Positions 17,661-58,709 of a DNA stretch of 64,000 nt are shown here, in pieces; positions within the stretch are counted from its first letter, which is position 1; every line of letters starts with the position of its first letter. A model generated the notes under the pieces. It was not told where the DNA came from. It did no database searches and worked only from the letters and a program-made list of their open reading frames with translations. The stretch is taken from assembly GCA_022709735.1 (NCBI GenBank), contig JAKLIG010000002.1:130028-194027 (forward strand), given 5' to 3'. The translations under genes were made by a program, and so were the position numbers. This DNA is from Patescibacteria group bacterium (GTDB lineage Bacteria; Patescibacteriota; Minisyncoccia; Moranbacterales; UBA2206).

Positions 17661-19463
17661 TTATATTTTCAAAATCAGATAATTTAAGAAAGAATTTGTT
17701 TTTGTCCAAATATTTTCTGAAAAATTTAGAGCCCAGTGTTTTTTGTTTTCAGGCTTTGTAAAAGTATAAAAATTTTCTTGGAATCTTAAATTTTCTGCAC
17801 CTAAAACCCGTTTATTCTGATCTAATAATTTTTCTGGTAAATTTATATTATGGCTTGAATAGGCTAATTTTTGGCGGTTTTTTTGCCTTTTTTGCCAATC
17901 CGATGAAAGGCTGTATTTGCCAAGATTGGTTTGGATTTCGGAAGCGGAAATATTAAAATTTGTTTCTTCTTGTGGAAGAGAAGGAGTTGCTATTTTATTT
18001 ATTTCTGTTGTAGAGAAGCCCAAATTGGGCGTCTCTACATTTCCGGCATTCCACACCCATTTATTATTTTTATTTTTTTCATAAATTTCATCTTCTGCGA
18101 TTTTATCTTTTTTTCGATCATATTTTATTTTTTGCACGACTTTTCCGGATGGATCACGAAGCTCGATTTTAGTTTTTTCATTTCCTAGCGTGAAAGCGCA
18201 AATTTTTTTAGTGAGCTTTTTTGTTTTGCCTTTTTTGATTTTGAAATCTTCTCGAATCGGGTGATTGACTAACTTCTCTTTGCCGGTAGCAATCGACCAA
18301 TTTTTAAGATTAATTTTGTCTTTAGATTCATTTTTAATTTCAATCCACTCATTTTTTGTGTCGCTTCCTTTTGGATTAGGCGAGATGCTTTTTATTCTAA
18401 TTTTTGGAGCATTATATTTTTCAACTTTAACTTCGAATTCATAAACCTTATCTTCTCCATCTCCGGTGATTTTGAGGCTACCTTTATATTTCCCAGTTTT
18501 TTCATATTTATGCTTGGTTTTTTTGAGATAGCTTTTATGGTCGTCGCCGAAATTCCAAGTAAATTTTTTTGCGTCATCATCAGCCAAAACATCGAAATAG
18601 GCATAAGTATTTTTGTATATTTTTTTAGGTAAGATTATTTTTCCTGACAAAATTTTGTCAAAACTATTTTCTCCACCGGGAGTAGATAGCGATGTCCAGC
18701 GCCAGGAAGAGCCATCGAAAGAAAAGGAATGAGCAGATTTTGTTGAGGAATATTTTTGGCTATCAACCAAGTTGCCATTTTTATCATGAAGAAAAACAGT
18801 ATCGCCGTTAGAATCATTGTTTAGGGAAAACGACCCATAAAAAACATAAAAGTTTCCATTTTTTTCATGTTTGGAAATTTTCCCTTTTGTTCCTTTGGAA
18901 TCTTTTATGACCCAGTCAGAGAAATCAATTTCTTTTCCGCTCGAATTTATTATTTCCACAAATTCCTCCTCTCCATTTTTGGTATCCGGCGCGGGATAAA
19001 TCTCATTGATTTTTATTCCAGAATAATTTGGTTTTTCTTCTTCTTCGGAATCGTCATCTTCTTCCCAGTTTATACTGTCAATAATTATTCCAGAATCCGT
19101 ATTGCCAAGAATTATGGCAATACCATTGTCTTCAGAAATAACACTACTTTTACTCGTATTGGCCCAAAGATAAATTTCTTTGGCAGGGATAATATCCTTA
19201 CTTCCGAATGATTTTATGCTAGTTTTTGTTCCAGTGGATGCTTTTTTAACAAGTCTATATCCATCTAGTTTAATTTCCTTGTCTGTTGTGTTGGTAATTT
19301 CTATAAAATCTTCTTCAGTTTTTCCGGGTCCTCCTGTATATTGCACATTTGTAATTTTTAAAACTGGCTCGGCCAGACAAATTTTTCCCAAAATAAAAAA
19401 GCTAGCTAAAATAACCAGCCCATAAATAAAAAAACAATAAAAATTATTTTTGTTTTTATCCAC
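17661..19463 (-). CDS. membrane-anchored secreted protein with three lamin-tail-domain (LTD)-like repeats
   Basis: N-terminal TM; repeated motifs EDFIEITNTTDKEIKLDGYRL, EEFVEIINSSGKEIDFSDWVI, NEWIEIKNESKDKINLKNWSI. Confidence 0.55.
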   Translation of the reverse strand: MDKNKNNFYCFFIYGLVILASFFILGKICLAEPVLKITNVQYTGGPGKTEEDFIEITNTTDKEIKLDGYRLVKKASTGTKTSIKSFGSKDIIPAKEIYLWANTSKSSVISEDNGIAIILGNTDSGIIIDSINWEEDDDSEEEEKPNYSGIKINEIYPAPDTKNGEEEFVEIINSSGKEIDFSDWVIKDSKGTKGKISKHEKNGNFYVFYGSFSLNNDSNGDTVFLHDKNGNLVDSQKYSSTKSAHSFSFDGSSWRWTSLSTPGGENSFDKILSGKIILPKKIYKNTYAYFDVLADDDAKKFTWNFGDDHKSYLKKTKHKYEKTGKYKGSLKITGDGEDKVYEFEVKVEKYNAPKIRIKSISPNPKGSDTKNEWIEIKNESKDKINLKNWSIATGKEKLVNHPIREDFKIKKGKTKKLTKKICAFTLGNEKTKIELRDPSGKVVQKIKYDRKKDKIAEDEIYEKNKNNKWVWNAGNVETPNLGFSTTEINKIATPSLPQEETNFNISASEIQTNLGKYSLSSDWQKRQKNRQKLAYSSHNINLPEKLLDQNKRVLGAENLRFQENFYTFTKPENKKHWALNFSENIWTKTNSFLNYLILKI

Positions 19464-21637: not shown

Positions 21638-21922
21638 ATGAAATCATTAATATTAATATTTAGTTTTAGTCAAGCTGACTTGATCAGTTTTATTTTTTTT
21701 CTAGGTTTTTTTCTTTATCTTTTAATTAAATGGGTTAGAGAAGAAAAGGGAAATTTTTTGATAAAAATAATTGCATCCATCGCAACCCCGCTAATTGTGG
21801 GTGCAACGTTATTTTTGTTGGGAGCATTGGGATTTCTGGCCTGCTCATGGATTTTAAGTATTTTAGGAATTAAAGGCTGGATCGTTGCTAAAACAATCTG
21901 GTTTTTACAATTAATAAAATAA
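21638..21922 (+). CDS. small membrane protein (94 aa)
   Basis: SD aaagggga; three TM segments. Confidence 0.5.
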   Translation: MKSLILIFSFSQADLISFIFFLGFFLYLLIKWVREEKGNFLIKIIASIATPLIVGATLFLLGALGFLACSWILSILGIKGWIVAKTIWFLQLIK

Positions 21923-21938
21923 AAAAAACTCTTTAAAA

Positions 21939-22199
21939 ATGAAAGGACGGTGTTTTATGAAAAAAATCATTTTGGTTGTAGTGTTATTAAGTATGTTTTT
22001 GCTTGTAGGTTGCAGTGACAATCCACAGGAAAGAAACATGCAAGGTATGTCGGTCATGCTGGCTGGTATAATGGTTAATATCTGGTTAGGAATTATGGCC
22101 ACACATAATTATTCAAGAGAACTCAAAAAATTATTAATTTTTTTATGCAAGAAAAATGGGGCATCAGAAAAAGATATTAAAGAAATACTCAAAAAGTAA
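21939..22199 (+). CDS. lipoprotein (signal peptide + lipobox LLVGC)
   Basis: MKKIILVVVLLSMFLLVGCSDNPQ... Confidence 0.55.
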   Translation: MKGRCFMKKIILVVVLLSMFLLVGCSDNPQERNMQGMSVMLAGIMVNIWLGIMATHNYSRELKKLLIFLCKKNGASEKDIKEILKK

Positions 22200-22410: not shown

Positions 22411-25400
22411 CTAAAGATCTGTTACTCTTTCCACTTCTTCCAGAGAAGTTTCGCCTTCCAAAACTCGCAAAATTCCATCTTGCGTCATGGTGAGCATGCC
22501 AAGTTCAACTGCTTTTTCTTCGAGCTCGGCTGTGATGGCACCTCTAGTGATAAGATCTTGAATTTCACGAGAAATTTGGAAAACTTCGCTTACAGTCATC
22601 TGACCCTTGTAGCCAAGTCCATTGCATTTCGGACAGCCTTTCGGTTTATATATTTCCAAAACTTTCGGAATTTCCACGCCTGATTTTTGACTAATAGTTT
22701 TCAAAACTTTTTCAATTTTTTCTTTTTCTTCTGCGCTTGGAGAAATTTTTTCTTTGCAATCGCAAAGTCTTCGCACTAATCTTTGCGCCATAAAAGCATT
22801 GACGGCGGTGGCAATGTCTGATGGAGCCACGCCCATATTGATCATTCGAGCGACAGCGCCAGCAGCGTTGTTAGTGTGGATTGTTGACAAAACCAAATGG
22901 CCAGTAAGAGAGGCTTGCACGGCCACTTGCGCAGTTTCGTCATCTCGAATTTCACCGATCATCATAATGTCTGGGTTTTGGCGAAGAAGGGCACGAAGAG
23001 CGGTGGCAAAAGTATAGCCTTCCTTTTCACTTACAGGAGTCTGTAAAATCCCAGGTAGTTGATATTCAATTGGATCTTCCACGGTGATTATTTTTACTTC
23101 GGGCTTGTTGAGAAGACTAAGGATACTATAAAGCGTGGTGGTTTTTCCAGATCCAGTCGGACCAGTATTAAGAATGACTCCATTAGGTTTTTTAATCTCA
23201 CTTATTATTTTTTCCAAATTTTCTTTTCTAATCCCAAGTTTTGTAAGATCTAGTTCTATCGAAGATCCACGAAGAAGGCGCATCACAATTGTTTCACCAT
23301 AACCGCCGAGAATTATTGAAATACGCACATCAATATTTTTTTCGGTTATTTCCTTAATATCATCATCAAACATTATGCTAAAGCGACTGTCAATCACGCC
23401 TTGACGAACTTCTGTTTTTACGCCAGAAAGCATTTTTATTTCTCCTAAAAGTGCTGGATATTCATTGAGTGGAAGTGTGGCAACATTTTGCAAAATTCCA
23501 TCGATTCGAAATCGTATTTTCACATCATCTTTTTCCGGTTCGATATGAATGTCGCCAACATTAAGAATTGTGGCAGCAGAAAAAATAATTTTATTAATAT
23601 CCATTGTCTTTGAAGCGCGCAAAACTTCTTCTAATTTTTTGAAATCTACTATATTTTCTTTAGCGCTTGAATAATTTTTTTCTTCGATTAGAATTTTTTT
23701 GCCAAGTGTTTGCGACATCAATTTTTCATAAATGCTTTCCAAAAATTCTCCTTGTCCGGTAGCTTCCTCGACTTCATCGATAGAGGTGACACCGCTAATT
23801 GCTTTCAAAATCCCGTCTTGAAGCATGGTGATCATACCAGATTCCAAGGCGGCAATGGCCAGATCAGTTTCGCCAGCCATTTCCAAAATTAATTTTTCAA
23901 TATCTTCATTGATTGTGAGAACTTCAAAAATTCCAATTCGCCCCTTGTATCCCAATCCACTGCATTTTGGACAGCCTTTTGGCCGATAAAGTTTTTCGAT
24001 ATTTTTTGGAATTTCTATTTTGGATTTCGGGGAGATAATTGAAAGAATTTTTTGAATGGATTCAATTGATTCCTTAGCGGGAACATAACTTTCTTTGCAG
24101 TCACAAAGTTTTCGCACCAAACGCTGACCGATTATGGCATTAATTGCAGGGGACATCAAAGTTGGCTTCACTCCAAGCTCAACGAGCCGTGGAATAGTTC
24201 CGATAGCATTATTAGTGTGGAGTGAAGATAAAACTAAATGTCCAGTGAGAGAGGAATTTACCGCAATGTCAGCGGTTTCATCGTCTCGAATTTCACCAAC
24301 TAAAATTACATCTGGGTCTTGGCGGACGATAGCGCGAAGCCCTTGGGCGAAAGTATAACCCCTTTCTTTTTCTACTTGGGTTTGAGAAATGCCTGATAAC
24401 TCATATTCAATTGGATCTTCAATAGTGATTATTTTTTTATCCGGTGTATTTAATTTGTTGATGATGGAATAAAGTGTTGTAGTTTTCCCCGATCCAGTTG
24501 GTCCGGTGTTCAAAATCATTCCGTTTGGTGCTTGCATTTCTTTTTGGACTATTTCATAAGCCAAGCCCTGAAGTCCTAAATTTTCTACGCTCACCTTGAT
24601 TGAATCTGGATCGAGAAGTCTCATTACAACTGATTCGCCGAAATTTCCTGGAATAACGGAAACACGAAGGTCAATTTTTTTGTCAGCTAAATTTATTTCG
24701 AAAGTTCCATCCTGAGCAATGTCGCGAAGATTGAGTTTCATTCCAGACATTAACTTTATGCGGGAAAGAATAGTGTTAAAAACATTGAGTGGCAAAAAGG
24801 CTATGTCCTGAAGCGTTCCGTCAATGCGATACCTAAGACGAAGTTTGTTTTCTTGTGGCTCAATATGAACATCGCTCGCGCCAAGCTTGTAGGCGCCAGC
24901 CATCATAATATTCAAAATTTGAGTGGTTGGCAGTTCGCCGATGCGCTGTTTCAGAGTAATAAGATCTTTCATTTCTTTCTCAAATTCGGAAAGTTCTTCT
25001 CCGCTAAGATTCAAGCTCATTTGATCCAAAACATCCACAAAAACAATCTGTTTGTATTTTTCAAAAACTCGGTTCAAGTTTGACGCAGAGACAACAAAAA
25101 TTTTTATCTGCCAGCCTTTTTCTTGCTTGAGTTTTTCCAAGAAATCTGTAGCTTCTTTATTTTCCGGATCAGAGGATATGATTGTAATCACTCTTCCATT
25201 TCGATGGATCACTGCTATCCGAAATTTCCGCGCTTCTTCTTCAGAGAGAAGTCGAATATCATCTTTAGAAATTGGGATGAGATTAGTATCGATATAAGGG
25301 AGATTAAGCTCGGCAGCCAGTTTTGAAGCTGTTTCTTCTTCCTCTTTTTTTCGGAATTGAGAAAGAATTTTAGCAGTCTTTGTTGTTTCCTGGATCTCAT

Positions 25401-25443
25401 CTTGGTTTTTATTTTGAATTTTAGGTTTGAGAATTTTTATCAT
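22411..25443 (-). CDS. tandem fusion of two complete GspE/PilB-type secretion ATPases (type IV pilus / T2SS assembly ATPase)
   Basis: Two full copies: Walker A GPTGSGKTTTLYS twice; tetra-Cys zinc motifs CDCK...CPKC twice; two GspE_N-like N-domains. Nucleotide-level internal similarity is also visible as paralogous antisense ORFs at 22754-23017 and 24134-24358. Confidence 0.85.
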   Translation of the reverse strand: MIKILKPKIQNKNQDEIQETTKTAKILSQFRKKEEEETASKLAAELNLPYIDTNLIPISKDDIRLLSEEEARKFRIAVIHRNGRVITIISSDPENKEATDFLEKLKQEKGWQIKIFVVSASNLNRVFEKYKQIVFVDVLDQMSLNLSGEELSEFEKEMKDLITLKQRIGELPTTQILNIMMAGAYKLGASDVHIEPQENKLRLRYRIDGTLQDIAFLPLNVFNTILSRIKLMSGMKLNLRDIAQDGTFEINLADKKIDLRVSVIPGNFGESVVMRLLDPDSIKVSVENLGLQGLAYEIVQKEMQAPNGMILNTGPTGSGKTTTLYSIINKLNTPDKKIITIEDPIEYELSGISQTQVEKERGYTFAQGLRAIVRQDPDVILVGEIRDDETADIAVNSSLTGHLVLSSLHTNNAIGTIPRLVELGVKPTLMSPAINAIIGQRLVRKLCDCKESYVPAKESIESIQKILSIISPKSKIEIPKNIEKLYRPKGCPKCSGLGYKGRIGIFEVLTINEDIEKLILEMAGETDLAIAALESGMITMLQDGILKAISGVTSIDEVEEATGQGEFLESIYEKLMSQTLGKKILIEEKNYSSAKENIVDFKKLEEVLRASKTMDINKIIFSAATILNVGDIHIEPEKDDVKIRFRIDGILQNVATLPLNEYPALLGEIKMLSGVKTEVRQGVIDSRFSIMFDDDIKEITEKNIDVRISIILGGYGETIVMRLLRGSSIELDLTKLGIRKENLEKIISEIKKPNGVILNTGPTGSGKTTTLYSILSLLNKPEVKIITVEDPIEYQLPGILQTPVSEKEGYTFATALRALLRQNPDIMMIGEIRDDETAQVAVQASLTGHLVLSTIHTNNAAGAVARMINMGVAPSDIATAVNAFMAQRLVRRLCDCKEKISPSAEEKEKIEKVLKTISQKSGVEIPKVLEIYKPKGCPKCNGLGYKGQMTVSEVFQISREIQDLITRGAITAELEEKAVELGMLTMTQDGILRVLEGETSLEEVERVTDL

Positions 25444-25520
25444 TTCCTTACGAATTACGAATTGGTACGAATGTACAAATAAGTAAAAAATTATAATATT
25501 ATCTTATCATAAAATGATAA

Positions 25521-25547
25521 ATTAAAAAACTGCCTAAATTAAGGCAG
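25521..25547 (-). terminator. terminator for the DHH phosphoesterase gene
   Basis: On the minus strand CTGCCTTAATTTAGGCAG is followed by TTTTTT. Confidence 0.6.
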
Positions 25548-25567
25548 TGTAAAATTTTAAGTAGAGA

Positions 25568-41506: not shown

Positions 41507-43318
41507 ATGGAAATAAAAATAAGTAAAAAGGAGATTATCGGAGCCATACTGATTGTTTTTTCAGTTGGCTCTTTGTTTTATGGCGCTTATTATTTTGGTC
41601 GGAAAGAAGCGGGGAAAAAATATGCCCAAAATTCTGACACTGTAAATAAATCAGCGGTTAATGCTAATAATGTAAATCAAAGCGAAACTGGCGTAGTTGA
41701 TTTGGCCAGCGATACAATTAAAAAAGGCTGGATAAAATGGCAAGAACCGCAAGATTTGGGCGATATTGGCCTAACTCTCAAAGAACTTTATACTGGCGCA
41801 GGCAATGATACGGTCAATTCAGAAGGAGTGAAATATTTGAAAGTTGGGGCAGTAGAAAAAGGCAAATATGCGACTGCAGAAATTTTAGATGTTGTTTCTT
41901 GGGTTTATGAAGGGCCAGGGCTTTCAAGCCCGAGCATTCTTCGAGTGTTGAAATTGAATGGTGAATTTATTTTTCTGACTAAAAATATTGAAAATTTTGA
42001 TGAATACACCAATGATTTCATCAAAACTTATTTTTTCTCCGGTTCGGCAGTCAAAAAAATAAACAATGAAATTGTGATTGAAGAATTGGTTTATCCAAAA
42101 GAATTAAGAGGAGAGAATGAAAGGCAAAATTTCGTGCGCAATGATTATGAAAATAGTTTTTTTGTTGGAGACAAGCTGAAACCAGTTTTTGTCCATTCAC
42201 AATTTGGGCAGGTTTGGACAACAGATGAGAAAAAAAATATAAATCCAGAAGTATCTGCATTCGAACTTAATAGCCATTTGGGTTATCTGATGGGGGAAAG
42301 AAAAAAAGTTTATCAAGATATTTTTGGCAGATACGGATTTTATCTGAAAGCGCCAGATGGAACGGCGGTTAGCTATAAATCAGTAATAGATATTTTTGAA
42401 AAACAAGAAAGATTTTCCAAGCTTCAAGCAACTTGGAATAATGGCAAAGTAAATGAGGCAGAATATGAAATTAATCCGAGTGGTTGCGGTGCTGGCGATT
42501 ATGTTTATAATGAAACGCTAAATGTCGATGTGGAAAAAAATTTAGTGCTAGTTGGAAAATCACAAAAGGGGGATAATCTTTATGGTTATAAAGACGCGAC
42601 ACTCGCAGGATTTTCCAAACTTTACAATGATATTTATTGGACAAAAGATGGCAAGAAAAAAACAGCCGAAGAGTTTTTAAAAATAAATCCTAAGGTTTTT
42701 TGGGTGGATCCATACGGCCGAACATTGGCATTTTATCGAGCTGATATTATCAGTCCAGCAGAGTGTGGTAAGCCGGTAATCTATCTTTATCCGGAAAATG
42801 ACAAAAATGTTCATGTCGAAGTGGCGCCAGGCAATGGTTTGAGCTTCACTGATCCGCAGTATAAAAATGGCTGGAATGTGTTGGCTCGCAAAAATGGAGA
42901 GTTAGTAAATACAGAAGATGGAAAAACTTATCCATATCTTTTTTGGGAAGGCGCGGGCGATGTCTATTATGAAACTCCGACGCAAGGATTTGTGGTAGCG
43001 AAAAATGACTTGAATTCTTTTTTGGATGAAAAATTAGCCAAGCTTGGCTTGATTTCCCAAGAAATTTCTGATTTCAAGGAATTTTGGATTCCTGAAATGA
43101 AAAAAGAAAATAAGCCATATTATTTTGTGACATTTTTGTCAAAAAGATACATTGATTCTTTAGCGCCACTTTCCATTTCGCCTGCACCGGATACTATTAT
43201 TCGCGTTATGATGGATTTTAAGGGCTTGGAAAAACCAGAAAAGGTGTTTGAGTTAAAAATAAATACACCCGAGCGAAAAGGATTTACGGTCGTTGAATGG
43301 GGAGGAATGCTTAAGTAA
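41507..43318 (+). CDS. large membrane-anchored hypothetical protein (603 aa)
   Basis: Single N-terminal TM; no recognised domain; follows lemA. Confidence 0.5.
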   Translation: MEIKISKKEIIGAILIVFSVGSLFYGAYYFGRKEAGKKYAQNSDTVNKSAVNANNVNQSETGVVDLASDTIKKGWIKWQEPQDLGDIGLTLKELYTGAGNDTVNSEGVKYLKVGAVEKGKYATAEILDVVSWVYEGPGLSSPSILRVLKLNGEFIFLTKNIENFDEYTNDFIKTYFFSGSAVKKINNEIVIEELVYPKELRGENERQNFVRNDYENSFFVGDKLKPVFVHSQFGQVWTTDEKKNINPEVSAFELNSHLGYLMGERKKVYQDIFGRYGFYLKAPDGTAVSYKSVIDIFEKQERFSKLQATWNNGKVNEAEYEINPSGCGAGDYVYNETLNVDVEKNLVLVGKSQKGDNLYGYKDATLAGFSKLYNDIYWTKDGKKKTAEEFLKINPKVFWVDPYGRTLAFYRADIISPAECGKPVIYLYPENDKNVHVEVAPGNGLSFTDPQYKNGWNVLARKNGELVNTEDGKTYPYLFWEGAGDVYYETPTQGFVVAKNDLNSFLDEKLAKLGLISQEISDFKEFWIPEMKKENKPYYFVTFLSKRYIDSLAPLSISPAPDTIIRVMMDFKGLEKPEKVFELKINTPERKGFTVVEWGGMLK

Positions 43319-57812: not shown

Positions 57813-58709
57813 ATGAGCACACTAATTGAATTTCAAGGATGGAGATTTACTACTTCAAATGTAACGGAAATTTTTTCGAAAGAAGCAGAGGGGCAAGCAA
57901 TCAGTGAGCTAAATAACTGGAAAGGCAATTTTCCGGTTGAAGAAACATGGGTGCAAAGGACTCTTGGTATTCCATCTCTGATTGTTCGCCTAGATTGCGT
58001 TGTTAAAAACGGGAAATTATTAATCTTTGAGATTGAAGAACGTCCCGCTGGAATTGGCGTAACGACCATATTAAATCCAGTTTTTTCCAAAAAATTCAAC
58101 AATTTAAGGAATGGCTGGCCAGAAATTAAATCAGTAGTAACAAAAGAGAGAAGTTCATGCGACGATTATTTATGGACGGAGTGCATCCCTATTGAAGTAG
58201 CTGAAAAAGATGATTGCTTGCTTCTCGTTCGTGCTGAACCGGAAGAAACGCAATTTCATAAATTTGTTTCTCGCTCTGTTAGCACGGTAATTACCAAGGG
58301 CGATAAACAATATGGCAAAGAAATGGGGTTGTGGGAAGAGGTGTCAATAACCGATTTTTATCGATTGCCATGGGATTCTGGATTTTGCTTGAAGCCTCTT
58401 AAGGGCTCAAAATGCAGAAATGTTGAAATCTGGCATCCTATTTTTGCGAAAAAGAAGAGTGGCATAGGTGGCATATCAACAAAATCCCGAATCCAGAAAG
58501 TCTTGGGATCCTATGGCAAGATGTATCTGCAAAAATTTATCGAACCCATGGAAAAACCTGGTGACAAATCCCTAATGATGGCCTATCGAGTTTTTTTTGG
58601 TTATGATTTATCAATCAAAGAGTATAGATATTTAGGTGGCGCTTGGAATGCCAGAGCAAATATTAAAATTCACGGAACACCGGATACTATAATGGGTGCT
58701 GTGAACTGA
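57813..58709 (+). CDS. hypothetical protein (298 aa), no recognised family
   Basis: SD aaaggag; immediately downstream of the aromatic-leader attenuator. Confidence 0.5.
   Translation: MSTLIEFQGWRFTTSNVTEIFSKEAEGQAISELNNWKGNFPVEETWVQRTLGIPSLIVRLDCVVKNGKLLIFEIEERPAGIGVTTILNPVFSKKFNNLRNGWPEIKSVVTKERSSCDDYLWTECIPIEVAEKDDCLLLVRAEPEETQFHKFVSRSVSTVITKGDKQYGKEMGLWEEVSITDFYRLPWDSGFCLKPLKGSKCRNVEIWHPIFAKKKSGIGGISTKSRIQKVLGSYGKMYLQKFIEPMEKPGDKSLMMAYRVFFGYDLSIKEYRYLGGAWNARANIKIHGTPDTIMGAVN

Follow-up and report, generated by a model that had tools for sequence, protein, structure and literature searches.

A tandem PilB/GspE-family ATPase in Patescibacteria with two probably active modules behind one N1 domain

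Two ATPase modules in one chain

We analyzed a 64,000-nucleotide stretch of a Patescibacteria genome (contig JAKLIG010000002.1; hereafter the window) and describe a gene in it for an assembly ATPase of the PilB/GspE family that carries two ATPase cores in one chain. Positions 22411..25443 of the minus strand form one uninterrupted open reading frame (ORF), stop codon included, whose translation is a protein of 1010 amino acids (aa; 112 kDa) without internal stops. Over its whole length, the product matches a database protein (P0001) with 100% identity; the NCBI name of this entry is 'GspE/PulE family protein [Candidatus Moranbacteria bacterium]'. A preliminary description had read the locus as a single 1010-aa polypeptide while allowing for a missed stop or frameshift; the intact frame and the identical database protein exclude such an error.

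Pfam matched the ATPase domain PF00437 (T2SSE) in two stretches (E = 1.6e-224). The N1 domain, PF05157 (MshEN/T2SSE_N, N1/GSPII), was matched only once (E = 1.8e-8 with the whole chain scanned and 1.5e-9 with the segment alone; Table 1). Scanned alone, the 50 aa that precede the second core gave no MshEN match even at E <= 10, and only the start of T2SSE was matched there. Given a single N1 domain and none before the second core, the layout is N1-[N2-CTD]a-junction-[N2-CTD]b (CTD, C-terminal domain), not two complete PilB proteins. The covalent head-to-tail duplication of the ATPase core proposed in the preliminary description is therefore genuine, whereas its two complete ATPases, with a GspE_N-like domain in each half, are not: module b has no N1.

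BLASTP aligns the two modules over 397 aa at 51% identity (E = 2e-146), and global alignment yields 48%, close to the 45 to 50% first estimated. As had also been read from the letters alone, the Walker A motif GPTGSGKT recurs (aa 314 and 761), as do the two parts of the tetracysteine motif, CDCK (447 and 894) and CPKC (491 and 937). The duplication is in register at 447 codons (1341 base pairs, bp). Its trace in the DNA is faint, consisting of a 52-nucleotide (nt) direct repeat, 79% identical at a spacing of 1338, and another repeat family that sums to 1341. Similar antisense ORFs within the gene (22754-23017 and 24134-24358) had been taken as a sign of the duplication at DNA level. That trace exists, but the 1.38 kb given for it is the start-to-start distance of the ORFs and not the true register. 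By profile comparison, the duplicated unit is N2 plus CTD, and it probably also takes in the preceding linker helix (approximately aa 143 aligned with aa 583). The idea that the junction derives from the end of N1 and the N1-N2 linker was considered and rejected. The hhalign alignment is collinear to approximately aa 143 and 583 only with N2 included, the linker alone reaches E = 0.02 at 2% probability, and the motif at aa 563-582 has no counterpart upstream of module a. A regular-expression scan for the cyclic di-GMP-binding MshEN motif gave no match in the ATPase, nor in the positive control.

PilT-like ATPases share a Walker A motif, an atypical Walker B motif followed by a catalytic Glu, arginine fingers R271/R286 (15 residues apart), an Asp-box E357, His-box H413/H420 and pore-loop D398/E400, and the PilB/GspE clade is marked by a tetracysteine zinc site (PMC5424180, McCallum et al. 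2017). The finger positions follow Geobacter metallireducens PilB numbering, and we mapped their equivalents by spacing and by alignment with PDB sequences. Each feature has a counterpart in both modules (Table 1). Among 118 close relatives, the catalytic motif positions are 97 to 100% conserved in both modules. In an 85-sequence alignment nearly all catalytic positions are invariant, including the arginine fingers R260/R275 and R707/R722, and the pore-loop pairs D387/E389 and D834/E836 are conserved too. The Zn cysteines of both modules are likewise invariant there. The Walker B Gly and the following catalytic Glu are invariant in modules a and b. Both modules read IEDPIEY at the Asp box, with E342, D343, E346, E789, D790 and E793 invariant, and so are H402, H409 and H856, while H849 is at least 90% conserved.

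The same holds at greater distance. All 14 of 14 divergent representatives, down to 39% identity, have a valid P-loop, Asp box, GE(I/V)R motif, His box and both arginine fingers in both modules. Decay was seen only in module b of two of these lineages: P0127 lacks the Zn cysteines, and P0134 lacks the RxRxDG block together with the Glu preceding the second arginine finger. Since the family-defining residues are kept in both modules, both look catalytic, and both probably bind and hydrolyze ATP. The intact P-loops and the Asp and His boxes noted earlier in each half are thus borne out, and the degraded Walker B motif or arginine finger that the same description had allowed for is found in neither module. 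The modules are under similar constraint overall: the mean frequency of the majority residue in close relatives is 0.87 for CTDa versus 0.83 for CTDb, and 0.81 for N2a versus 0.79 for N2b. On identity measures, module b is nevertheless the faster-evolving copy. Mean identity between clusters is 0.49 for a-a versus 0.43 for b-b, and single-module PilBs are likewise 0.49 identical to a and 0.43 to b.

The junction between the modules is exactly 50 aa long in 118 of 118 relatives. It carries the motif T562-G-x-G-x-F-L-E-x-I-Y-E-K-L-M-x-Q-T-L-G581, in which most named positions are 92 to 100% conserved in these proteins (I571 reaches 83%, and Q578 and T579 approximately 70%). The motif can be recognized in most divergent doubles, as we call the two-module proteins; in two of them (P0128 and P0129) the junction is shortened. 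Such constancy is that of a structured connection rather than a loose tether. An AlphaFold2 monomer model, built on the 85-sequence alignment, has a mean predicted local distance difference test (pLDDT) score of 77.9, with both modules well folded. It predicts junction helices at aa 565-577, 588-597 and 601-610, with a pLDDT of 80 to 88 from residue 581 on. Foldseek places each module on PilB/PilF/GspE cores with target-normalized template modeling (TM) scores of 0.86 to 0.91. No PDB chain spans both modules: query-normalized TM is at most 0.36, and by sequence each PDB relative matches as a single stretch.

Table 1. Features of the ATPase gene and its upstream neighbor. Positions refer to the window and residue numbers to the 1010-aa protein; a and b denote the two modules.
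Feature	Position	Strand	Residues	Basis or remark
ATPase gene, tandem PilB/GspE-family	22411..25443	-		ORF and database identity
N1 (MshEN/GSPII), sole copy	25051..25308	-	46-131	Pfam; AlphaFold2 predicts a folded alpha/beta domain
Module a (N2 + CTD)	23758..24930	-	172-562	Pfam, motifs, fold match
Walker A, module a, GPTGSGKT	24481..24504	-	314-321	100% conserved in 118 relatives
Inter-module junction	23608..23757	-	563-612	Fixed length and motif; AlphaFold2 model partly helical
Module b (N2 + CTD), no own N1	22414..23607	-	613-1010	Pfam, motifs, fold match
Walker A, module b, GPTGSGKT	23140..23163	-	761-768	99-100% conserved in 118 relatives
Walker A Lys			a K320; b K767
Catalytic Glu			a E384 (ILVGE); b E831 (MMIGE)
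Arginine fingers			a R260, R275; b R707, R722
Asp-box Glu			a E342; b E789
His box			a H402, H409; b H849, H856
Pore loop			a D387, E389; b D834, E836
Zn cysteines			a C447, C449, C491, C494; b C894, C896, C937, C940
DHH-family phosphodiesterase, NrnA-like, 377 aa	25568..26701	-		Directly upstream of the ATPase; synteny marker
Terminator-like hairpin after the DHH gene	25548-25529	-		Within 25493..25548
Promoter-like site ahead of the ATPase start	25520-25493	-		Site counts not above shuffled expectation

Distribution and history of the locus

A word-indexed search gave 8000 scored candidates, and we inspected the best 120 clusters (90% identity). Proteins of approximately 1004 to 1055 aa, mostly 1005 to 1024, make up 118 of these, with 68 to 89% identity at 98 to 100% coverage; the two exceptions have 1460 aa (P0007) and 869 aa (P0058, partial). 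The doubles were drawn from NCBI, JGI, ENA and Logan assemblies, and those with a name are Moranbacteria/Moraniibacteriota, Parcubacteria or Paceibacterota. An exhaustive search of 1.84 billion representatives (50% identity clusters) added 13 full-length double clusters of 978 to 1018 aa that are 39 to 53% identical (P0121-P0123 and P0125-P0134). Below approximately 575 bits, this search returned ordinary single-module proteins of approximately 550 aa. Among GTDB species genomes, a single ORF of approximately 1000 aa with two P-loops belonged to Patescibacteria at every locus. Doubles were found in Patescibacteria only, in keeping with the lineage-specific variant suggested at the outset.

Three sequences call for comment. 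A full-length double, 75% identical, lies on a 4445-bp contig (L007; CAZEYB010000050.1) of a metagenome-assembled genome (MAG) labeled 'uncultured Bdellovibrionales', and is most likely on a mis-binned Patescibacteria contig. In Moranbacteria GW2011_GWF2_35_54 (L035:9989-12995), the frame of the double, measured from stop to stop, covers 897 aa, but the protein match runs on to 12995, which looks like a frameshift near the 3' end, from a sequencing error or in a pseudogene. A 540-aa protein (P0142) was rejected as a 'b-like single': its gene starts 54 nt from the edge of a 1.9-kb contig, and it is therefore probably a truncated double.

Outside the Candidate Phyla Radiation (CPR), only unfused arrangements were found, namely two adjacent full-length pilB genes followed by pilC in Omnitrophota and Planctomycetia. 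At three such loci in MAGs (L044:10082-14720, L045:9827-14468 and L054:9818-14469), pilB genes of approximately 570 aa each abut or overlap head to tail. The paired proteins are 52 to 54% identical in the core, a divergence similar to that between modules a and b. The second has GPTGSGKS and, by pattern match, no canonical TGHx6H His box. These pairs could form a hetero-oligomeric extension ATPase. They differ from the doubles in that the two genes are unfused and both encode an N1. We rejected them as forerunners of the fusion on account of this second N1 and of their roughly equal distance to modules a and b; they represent an independent duplication.

Within Patescibacteria, the surroundings of the gene are nearly always the same. 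Upstream lie genes for PolA (or a 5'-exonuclease), TsaE and the NrnA-like DHH protein; downstream lie those for RuvB, a bPH protein, a lamin-tail domain (LTD)/PKD protein and YebC/RuvC. The same PolA/TsaE/DHH...RuvB/YebC neighborhood surrounds doubles of only 39 to 45% identity, among them P0126 (42%) and P0134 (39%). The DHH gene stands directly upstream of the double at 12 of 13 Moranbacteria-type loci, the pairing recurs at more distant loci, and by gene order it is a syntenic marker of the ATPase locus. Its protein has NrnA, TM1595 and Rv2837c as best PDB relatives (E approximately 1e-10 to 1e-11); Pfam finds only the DHH N-terminal domain in it, and no NCBIfam model matches. One double (P0305, L088) has differing neighbors (PBP1a, DnaA/DnaN), and a type IV secretion-like cluster with a TraG/VirB4-like P-loop protein, a TraC-like protein and PrgI (L088:18682-22991) lies 6 to 10 kb downstream of it.

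Across clusters, modules pair a with a and b with b in comparisons that are based on identity rather than phylogeny. Because a is closest to a and b to b, this indicates that the doubles stem from one old duplication. In P0128 and P0129, the protein's own two modules are 57% and 75% identical, respectively, and both genes sit in the shared PolA/TsaE...RuvB neighborhood. For that reason we rejected independent duplications here and read their similarity as homogenization, more likely by unequal crossover or gene conversion; given the shortened junction, they may also have been re-duplicated.

The locus also occurs with one module and with three. A single-module gene of 565 aa (P0135) lies between DHH and RuvB at L090:1400-3097 (GCA_041643235.1, JBGGGZ010000257.1). 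It is a-like along its full length, and the lack of any a-to-b switch led us to reject it as a collapsed double. It is the unduplicated state of the locus, or possibly one reverted by clean deletion of module b. At this locus, the gene next after RuvB encodes a 404-aa T4SS_pilin (PF18895) protein. A triple of 1460 aa (P0007), with three modules behind one N1, follows TsaE-DHH at L001:10001-14383 (JGI 3300022698, Ga0248662_100121). The linker and N2 of its middle module are 57 to 75% identical to module 3 versus 18 to 32% to module 1, and its C-terminal part is 58 to 67% identical to module 1 versus 36 to 43% toward module 3. On this pattern, the middle module is a crossover chimera, as expected from unequal crossover within a double. 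In our reading, the locus first held a single-module gene, which was duplicated internally in the ancestry of a large clade of Patescibacteria (Moranbacteria/Paceibacteria), and the double gene would have been inherited vertically since.

Other features of the window concern the gene less directly. The terminator-like hairpin and promoter-like site between the DHH and ATPase genes (Table 1) are weak evidence that the ATPase forms a separate transcription unit. Between the ATPase gene and ruvB, two small ORFs at 21638-22199 (+) have no Pfam match; their products are a hydrophobic protein of 94 aa and one of 86 aa that begins like a lipoprotein (…LLVGCSD). The gene at 17661-19463 (-) encodes 600 aa with a PKD domain and three lamin-tail domains; its product belongs to the RuvB-bPH-LTD block found across Moranbacteria loci and is probably a surface protein. 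Two further ORFs, of 603 aa (41507-43318, +) and 298 aa (57813-58709, +), had no Pfam match at E <= 1e-5.

Family membership and filament context

Scored against equivalog models, the full chain reaches 884 bits on TIGR02538 (PilB; cut-off 675.65) and 899 bits on TIGR02533 (GspE; cut-off 630.25). It passes these cut-offs only because the scores of two modules add up. Modules a and b alone score 249 and 226 bits on the ComGA model (NF041000; cut-off 300) and 182 and 154 bits on the PilT model (TIGR01420; cut-off 319.1), all below the cut-offs. By these scores and its motifs, the 1010-aa protein clearly belongs to the PilB/GspE clade of assembly ATPases.

A partner for such an ATPase is present in the clade. 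Its PilC has 406 aa (T2SSF, E = 2e-56) and was found in at least 120 Moranbacteria-type clusters at 57 to 93% identity. In two genomes (L035 and L089), pilC lies 5 to 6 kb from the double, with genes for ClpP, trigger factor (Tig) and NusA between. Since pilC stands alone between clpP and pnp there (L035:3823-5043, -; L089:10001-11221), pilus genes in Moranbacteria appear to be scattered among housekeeping genes rather than gathered in one operon. CPR bacteria are reported to carry PilB, PilT, PilC, PilM/N/O, PilD and pilins, without the secretin PilQ (PMC6744442). Given this gene set, the machine is most likely a type IV pilus or competence-type filament, and a classical type II secretion system (T2SS) is unlikely. 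Family membership and co-occurrence suggest that the ATPase most likely powers filament polymerization through PilC.

PilB is the best PDB sequence match (E = 1e-107, aa 37-562), with structures from Geobacter metallireducens/sulfurreducens (5TSH, 5TSG, 5ZFR, 6OLJ) and Myxococcus (3JC8). Each module resembles it in fold (TM 0.86 to 0.90), the domain order N1, N2, CTD is the same, and Walker A, Asp box, atypical Walker B with its Glu, His box, arginine fingers, pore-loop acids and the tetracysteine site are all shared. However, PilB has one N2-CTD per chain, as is the rule in the PilB/GspE clade, and forms C2 homohexamers, whereas the chain described here has two cores, the second attached by a 50-aa junction. 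A ring of six modules would here need three chains with three N1 domains, and the gene lies outside a pilus operon.

Similarity to GspE/EpsE (4PHT, 1P9R, 4KSR/4KSS) equals that to PilB in both sequence and fold, and the Zn-binding CTD is shared. The hexameric GspE crystal structures are artificial Hcp1 fusions, as their PDB molecule names state. Fusion to Hcp1 served to force hexamer formation and is a precedent for covalent linkage aiding ring assembly. In contrast, the natural fusion here joins ATPase to ATPase and not to a scaffold, and CPR bacteria have no outer-membrane secretin (PMC6744442), which makes a classical T2SS unlikely. Thermus thermophilus PilF (6F8L, 5OIU, 5IT5) is likewise an enlarged PilB-family protein (913-aa PDB chain) and a good match to module a. 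PilF is long through multiplied N1/GSPII domains before a single ATPase core, and its match falls at chain residues 369-887, consistent with N1 multiplication ahead of the core. In the protein described here, the core has been multiplied and one N1 kept.

Possible ring assembly and its meaning

A PilB ring is described as six 'packing units', each pairing the N2 domain from one chain with the CTD of its neighbor, with flexible linkers between units and ATP held between them (PMC5424180). All solved PilB hexamers have C2 'CCOCCO' symmetry (PMC6858323). On balance, we favor the view that the gene encodes a tandem PilB/GspE assembly ATPase that arose by duplication at this locus, has both sites active, drives a filament through PilC and likely works as a ring of three chains and six modules. 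A chain with two N2-CTD modules would fill two adjacent ring positions, and three chains would therefore close the ring; we infer this stoichiometry as the most likely one, and the trimer of pseudo-dimers suggested in the preliminary description is consistent with the data. The result would be a pseudo-hexamer of alternating a and b positions with only three N1 anchors, in which the invariant-length junction would staple neighboring modules and fix their geometry. The three-module ortholog would close an equivalent ring as a dimer. Six is divisible by each of the module numbers seen at the locus (one, two and three), which agrees with a single in-plane ring. Together with pore residues equally kept in both modules and a rigid junction, these copy numbers favor the in-plane pseudo-hexamer, short of proof.

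There are parallels in other ring-forming proteins. PCNA is a trimer of two-domain chains, the bacterial beta-clamp is a dimer of three-domain chains, and BMC-T proteins form pseudohexamers. By analogy, a six-fold ring built as 6x1, 3x2 or 2x3 domains would match the one-, two- and three-module genes at this locus. PCNA, beta-clamp, BMC-T and KaiC are families unrelated to the PilT/VirB11-like ATPases. We put forward more tentatively, at somewhat less than even chances, that one locus in Patescibacteria provides the six-module PilB ring in all three forms, the double form alternating two active module types over three N1 domains.

Several observations weigh against the ring and motor proposed here. 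In an a-b-a-b-a-b ring, opposite sites are always one a and one b, and strict C2 equivalence is therefore impossible: unlike the C2 PilB hexamers, it cannot have chemically identical opposite sites. A ring of two triples, (a-m-b)x2, would allow C2 equivalence. The triple is known from one contig only. The AlphaFold2 model has a predicted TM score (pTM) of only 0.45, which leaves the relative placement of the modules undefined. Taken separately, N1 with module a (490 bits on the PilB and 489 on the GspE model) and module b (407 and 423) each stay below the equivalog cut-offs. The 64-kb window holds no second T2SSE protein, prepilin signature, PilC or pilT, its parent contig ending approximately 6 kb beyond it. 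At the loci examined, no pilus gene is next to any double, and the ATPase gene is surrounded by housekeeping and DNA-repair genes. Elsewhere in these genomes, a canonical single pilB or a pilT may be present.

Other explanations have to account for the same data. Joining of two adjacent pilB genes by sequencing, assembly or frameshift error would be conceivable given that separate pairs do occur in Omnitrophota and Planctomycetia, but those arose independently and carry an N1 in each gene, whereas module b has neither an N1 nor a start context of its own. More than 118 independent clusters from four sources encode the protein of approximately 1005 to 1020 aa; with the intact frame and the fixed, conserved junction, they leave an artifact practically no room. 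The more serious competitor, though an improbable one, is a stacked double ring of six chains, with a ring of a modules over a ring of b modules and only the N1-proximal ring engaging PilC. In other families, P-loop ATPase modules that occur in tandem are usually stacked, as in KaiC, a tandem RecA-like ATPase, and in ClpB, p97 and type II AAA+ proteins. With arginine fingers present in each, modules a and b could here form one homotypic ring apiece, and the low pTM defines no inter-module geometry that would speak against stacking. However, the acidic pore-loop residues, thought to contact PilC (PMC5424180), are as well conserved in module b as in a, which one would not expect of a distal ring out of contact with PilC. 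A six-module ring accounts for the copy numbers one, two and three more simply than stacks of one, two and three stories do, and unequal crossovers that shuffle parts of a and b have been tolerated.

A division of labor, in which only one module, probably a, turns over ATP and b binds nucleotide or is structural, seems to us quite unlikely. F1-ATPase alpha subunits are the model for such a non-catalytic role. The faster divergence and slightly lower conservation of module b, its missing N1 and its partial decay in P0127 and P0134 would all suit this explanation. Nevertheless, in this protein and in nearly all relatives module b retains the Lys of Walker A, the Glu residues of the Asp box and the catalytic site, the two His-box histidines and the two arginine fingers, at 97 to 100% conservation. 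We give still less credence to a motor working in two directions, either with one module for extension and the N1-less b for PilT-like retraction, or as a bidirectional enzyme like the Tad ATPase CpaF. Module b lacks N1, as does PilT, neither the window nor the flanks of doubles showed a PilT gene, and a single ATPase that acts bidirectionally has been described (PMC11300603). Against this, b scores far higher on the PilB/GspE models than on the PilT model, where it falls well short of the cut-off, and retains the tetracysteine Zn site that marks the PilB/GspE clade (PMC5424180). Moreover, PilT is reported to be widespread in CPR (PMC6744442), and our look for it covered the window and those flanks only.

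Our literature searches, which included a term search of a 2024 PilB review, found no description of a tandem PilB/GspE ATPase, although absence there is no proof, and no solved PDB structure has the tandem-module architecture. The double sequences themselves are already public under generic names. Motors of the PilB/GspE/PilT type have a central role in pili, secretion, DNA uptake and virulence. How ATP turnover is coupled to the filament is still argued from the C2, C3 or C6 symmetry of homohexamers (PMC5424180, PMC6858323), and interactions between extension ATPases are named as an open question in a 2024 review (PMC11656802). A natural covalent dimer, trimer and monomer at one locus would fix which modules are neighbors, and one site per pair could be mutated independently, which in other ring ATPases has so far required engineering. 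How the sites cooperate, how many N1 anchors are needed and which symmetry is used would therefore be testable with recombinant protein.

The tandem ATPase marks a large clade of uncultured CPR bacteria, whose pili are believed to serve in attachment to hosts and in the uptake of DNA (PMC6744442). In other respects the ATPase belongs to an enzyme family that is well understood, and its value lies with research on type IV filament motors. If the alternating a/b ring is true, it would depart from current models of rotary catalysis by PilB, which assume a strict C2 homohexamer, and would be a natural pseudo-hexameric secretion ATPase, in a relation like that of PCNA to the beta-clamp.

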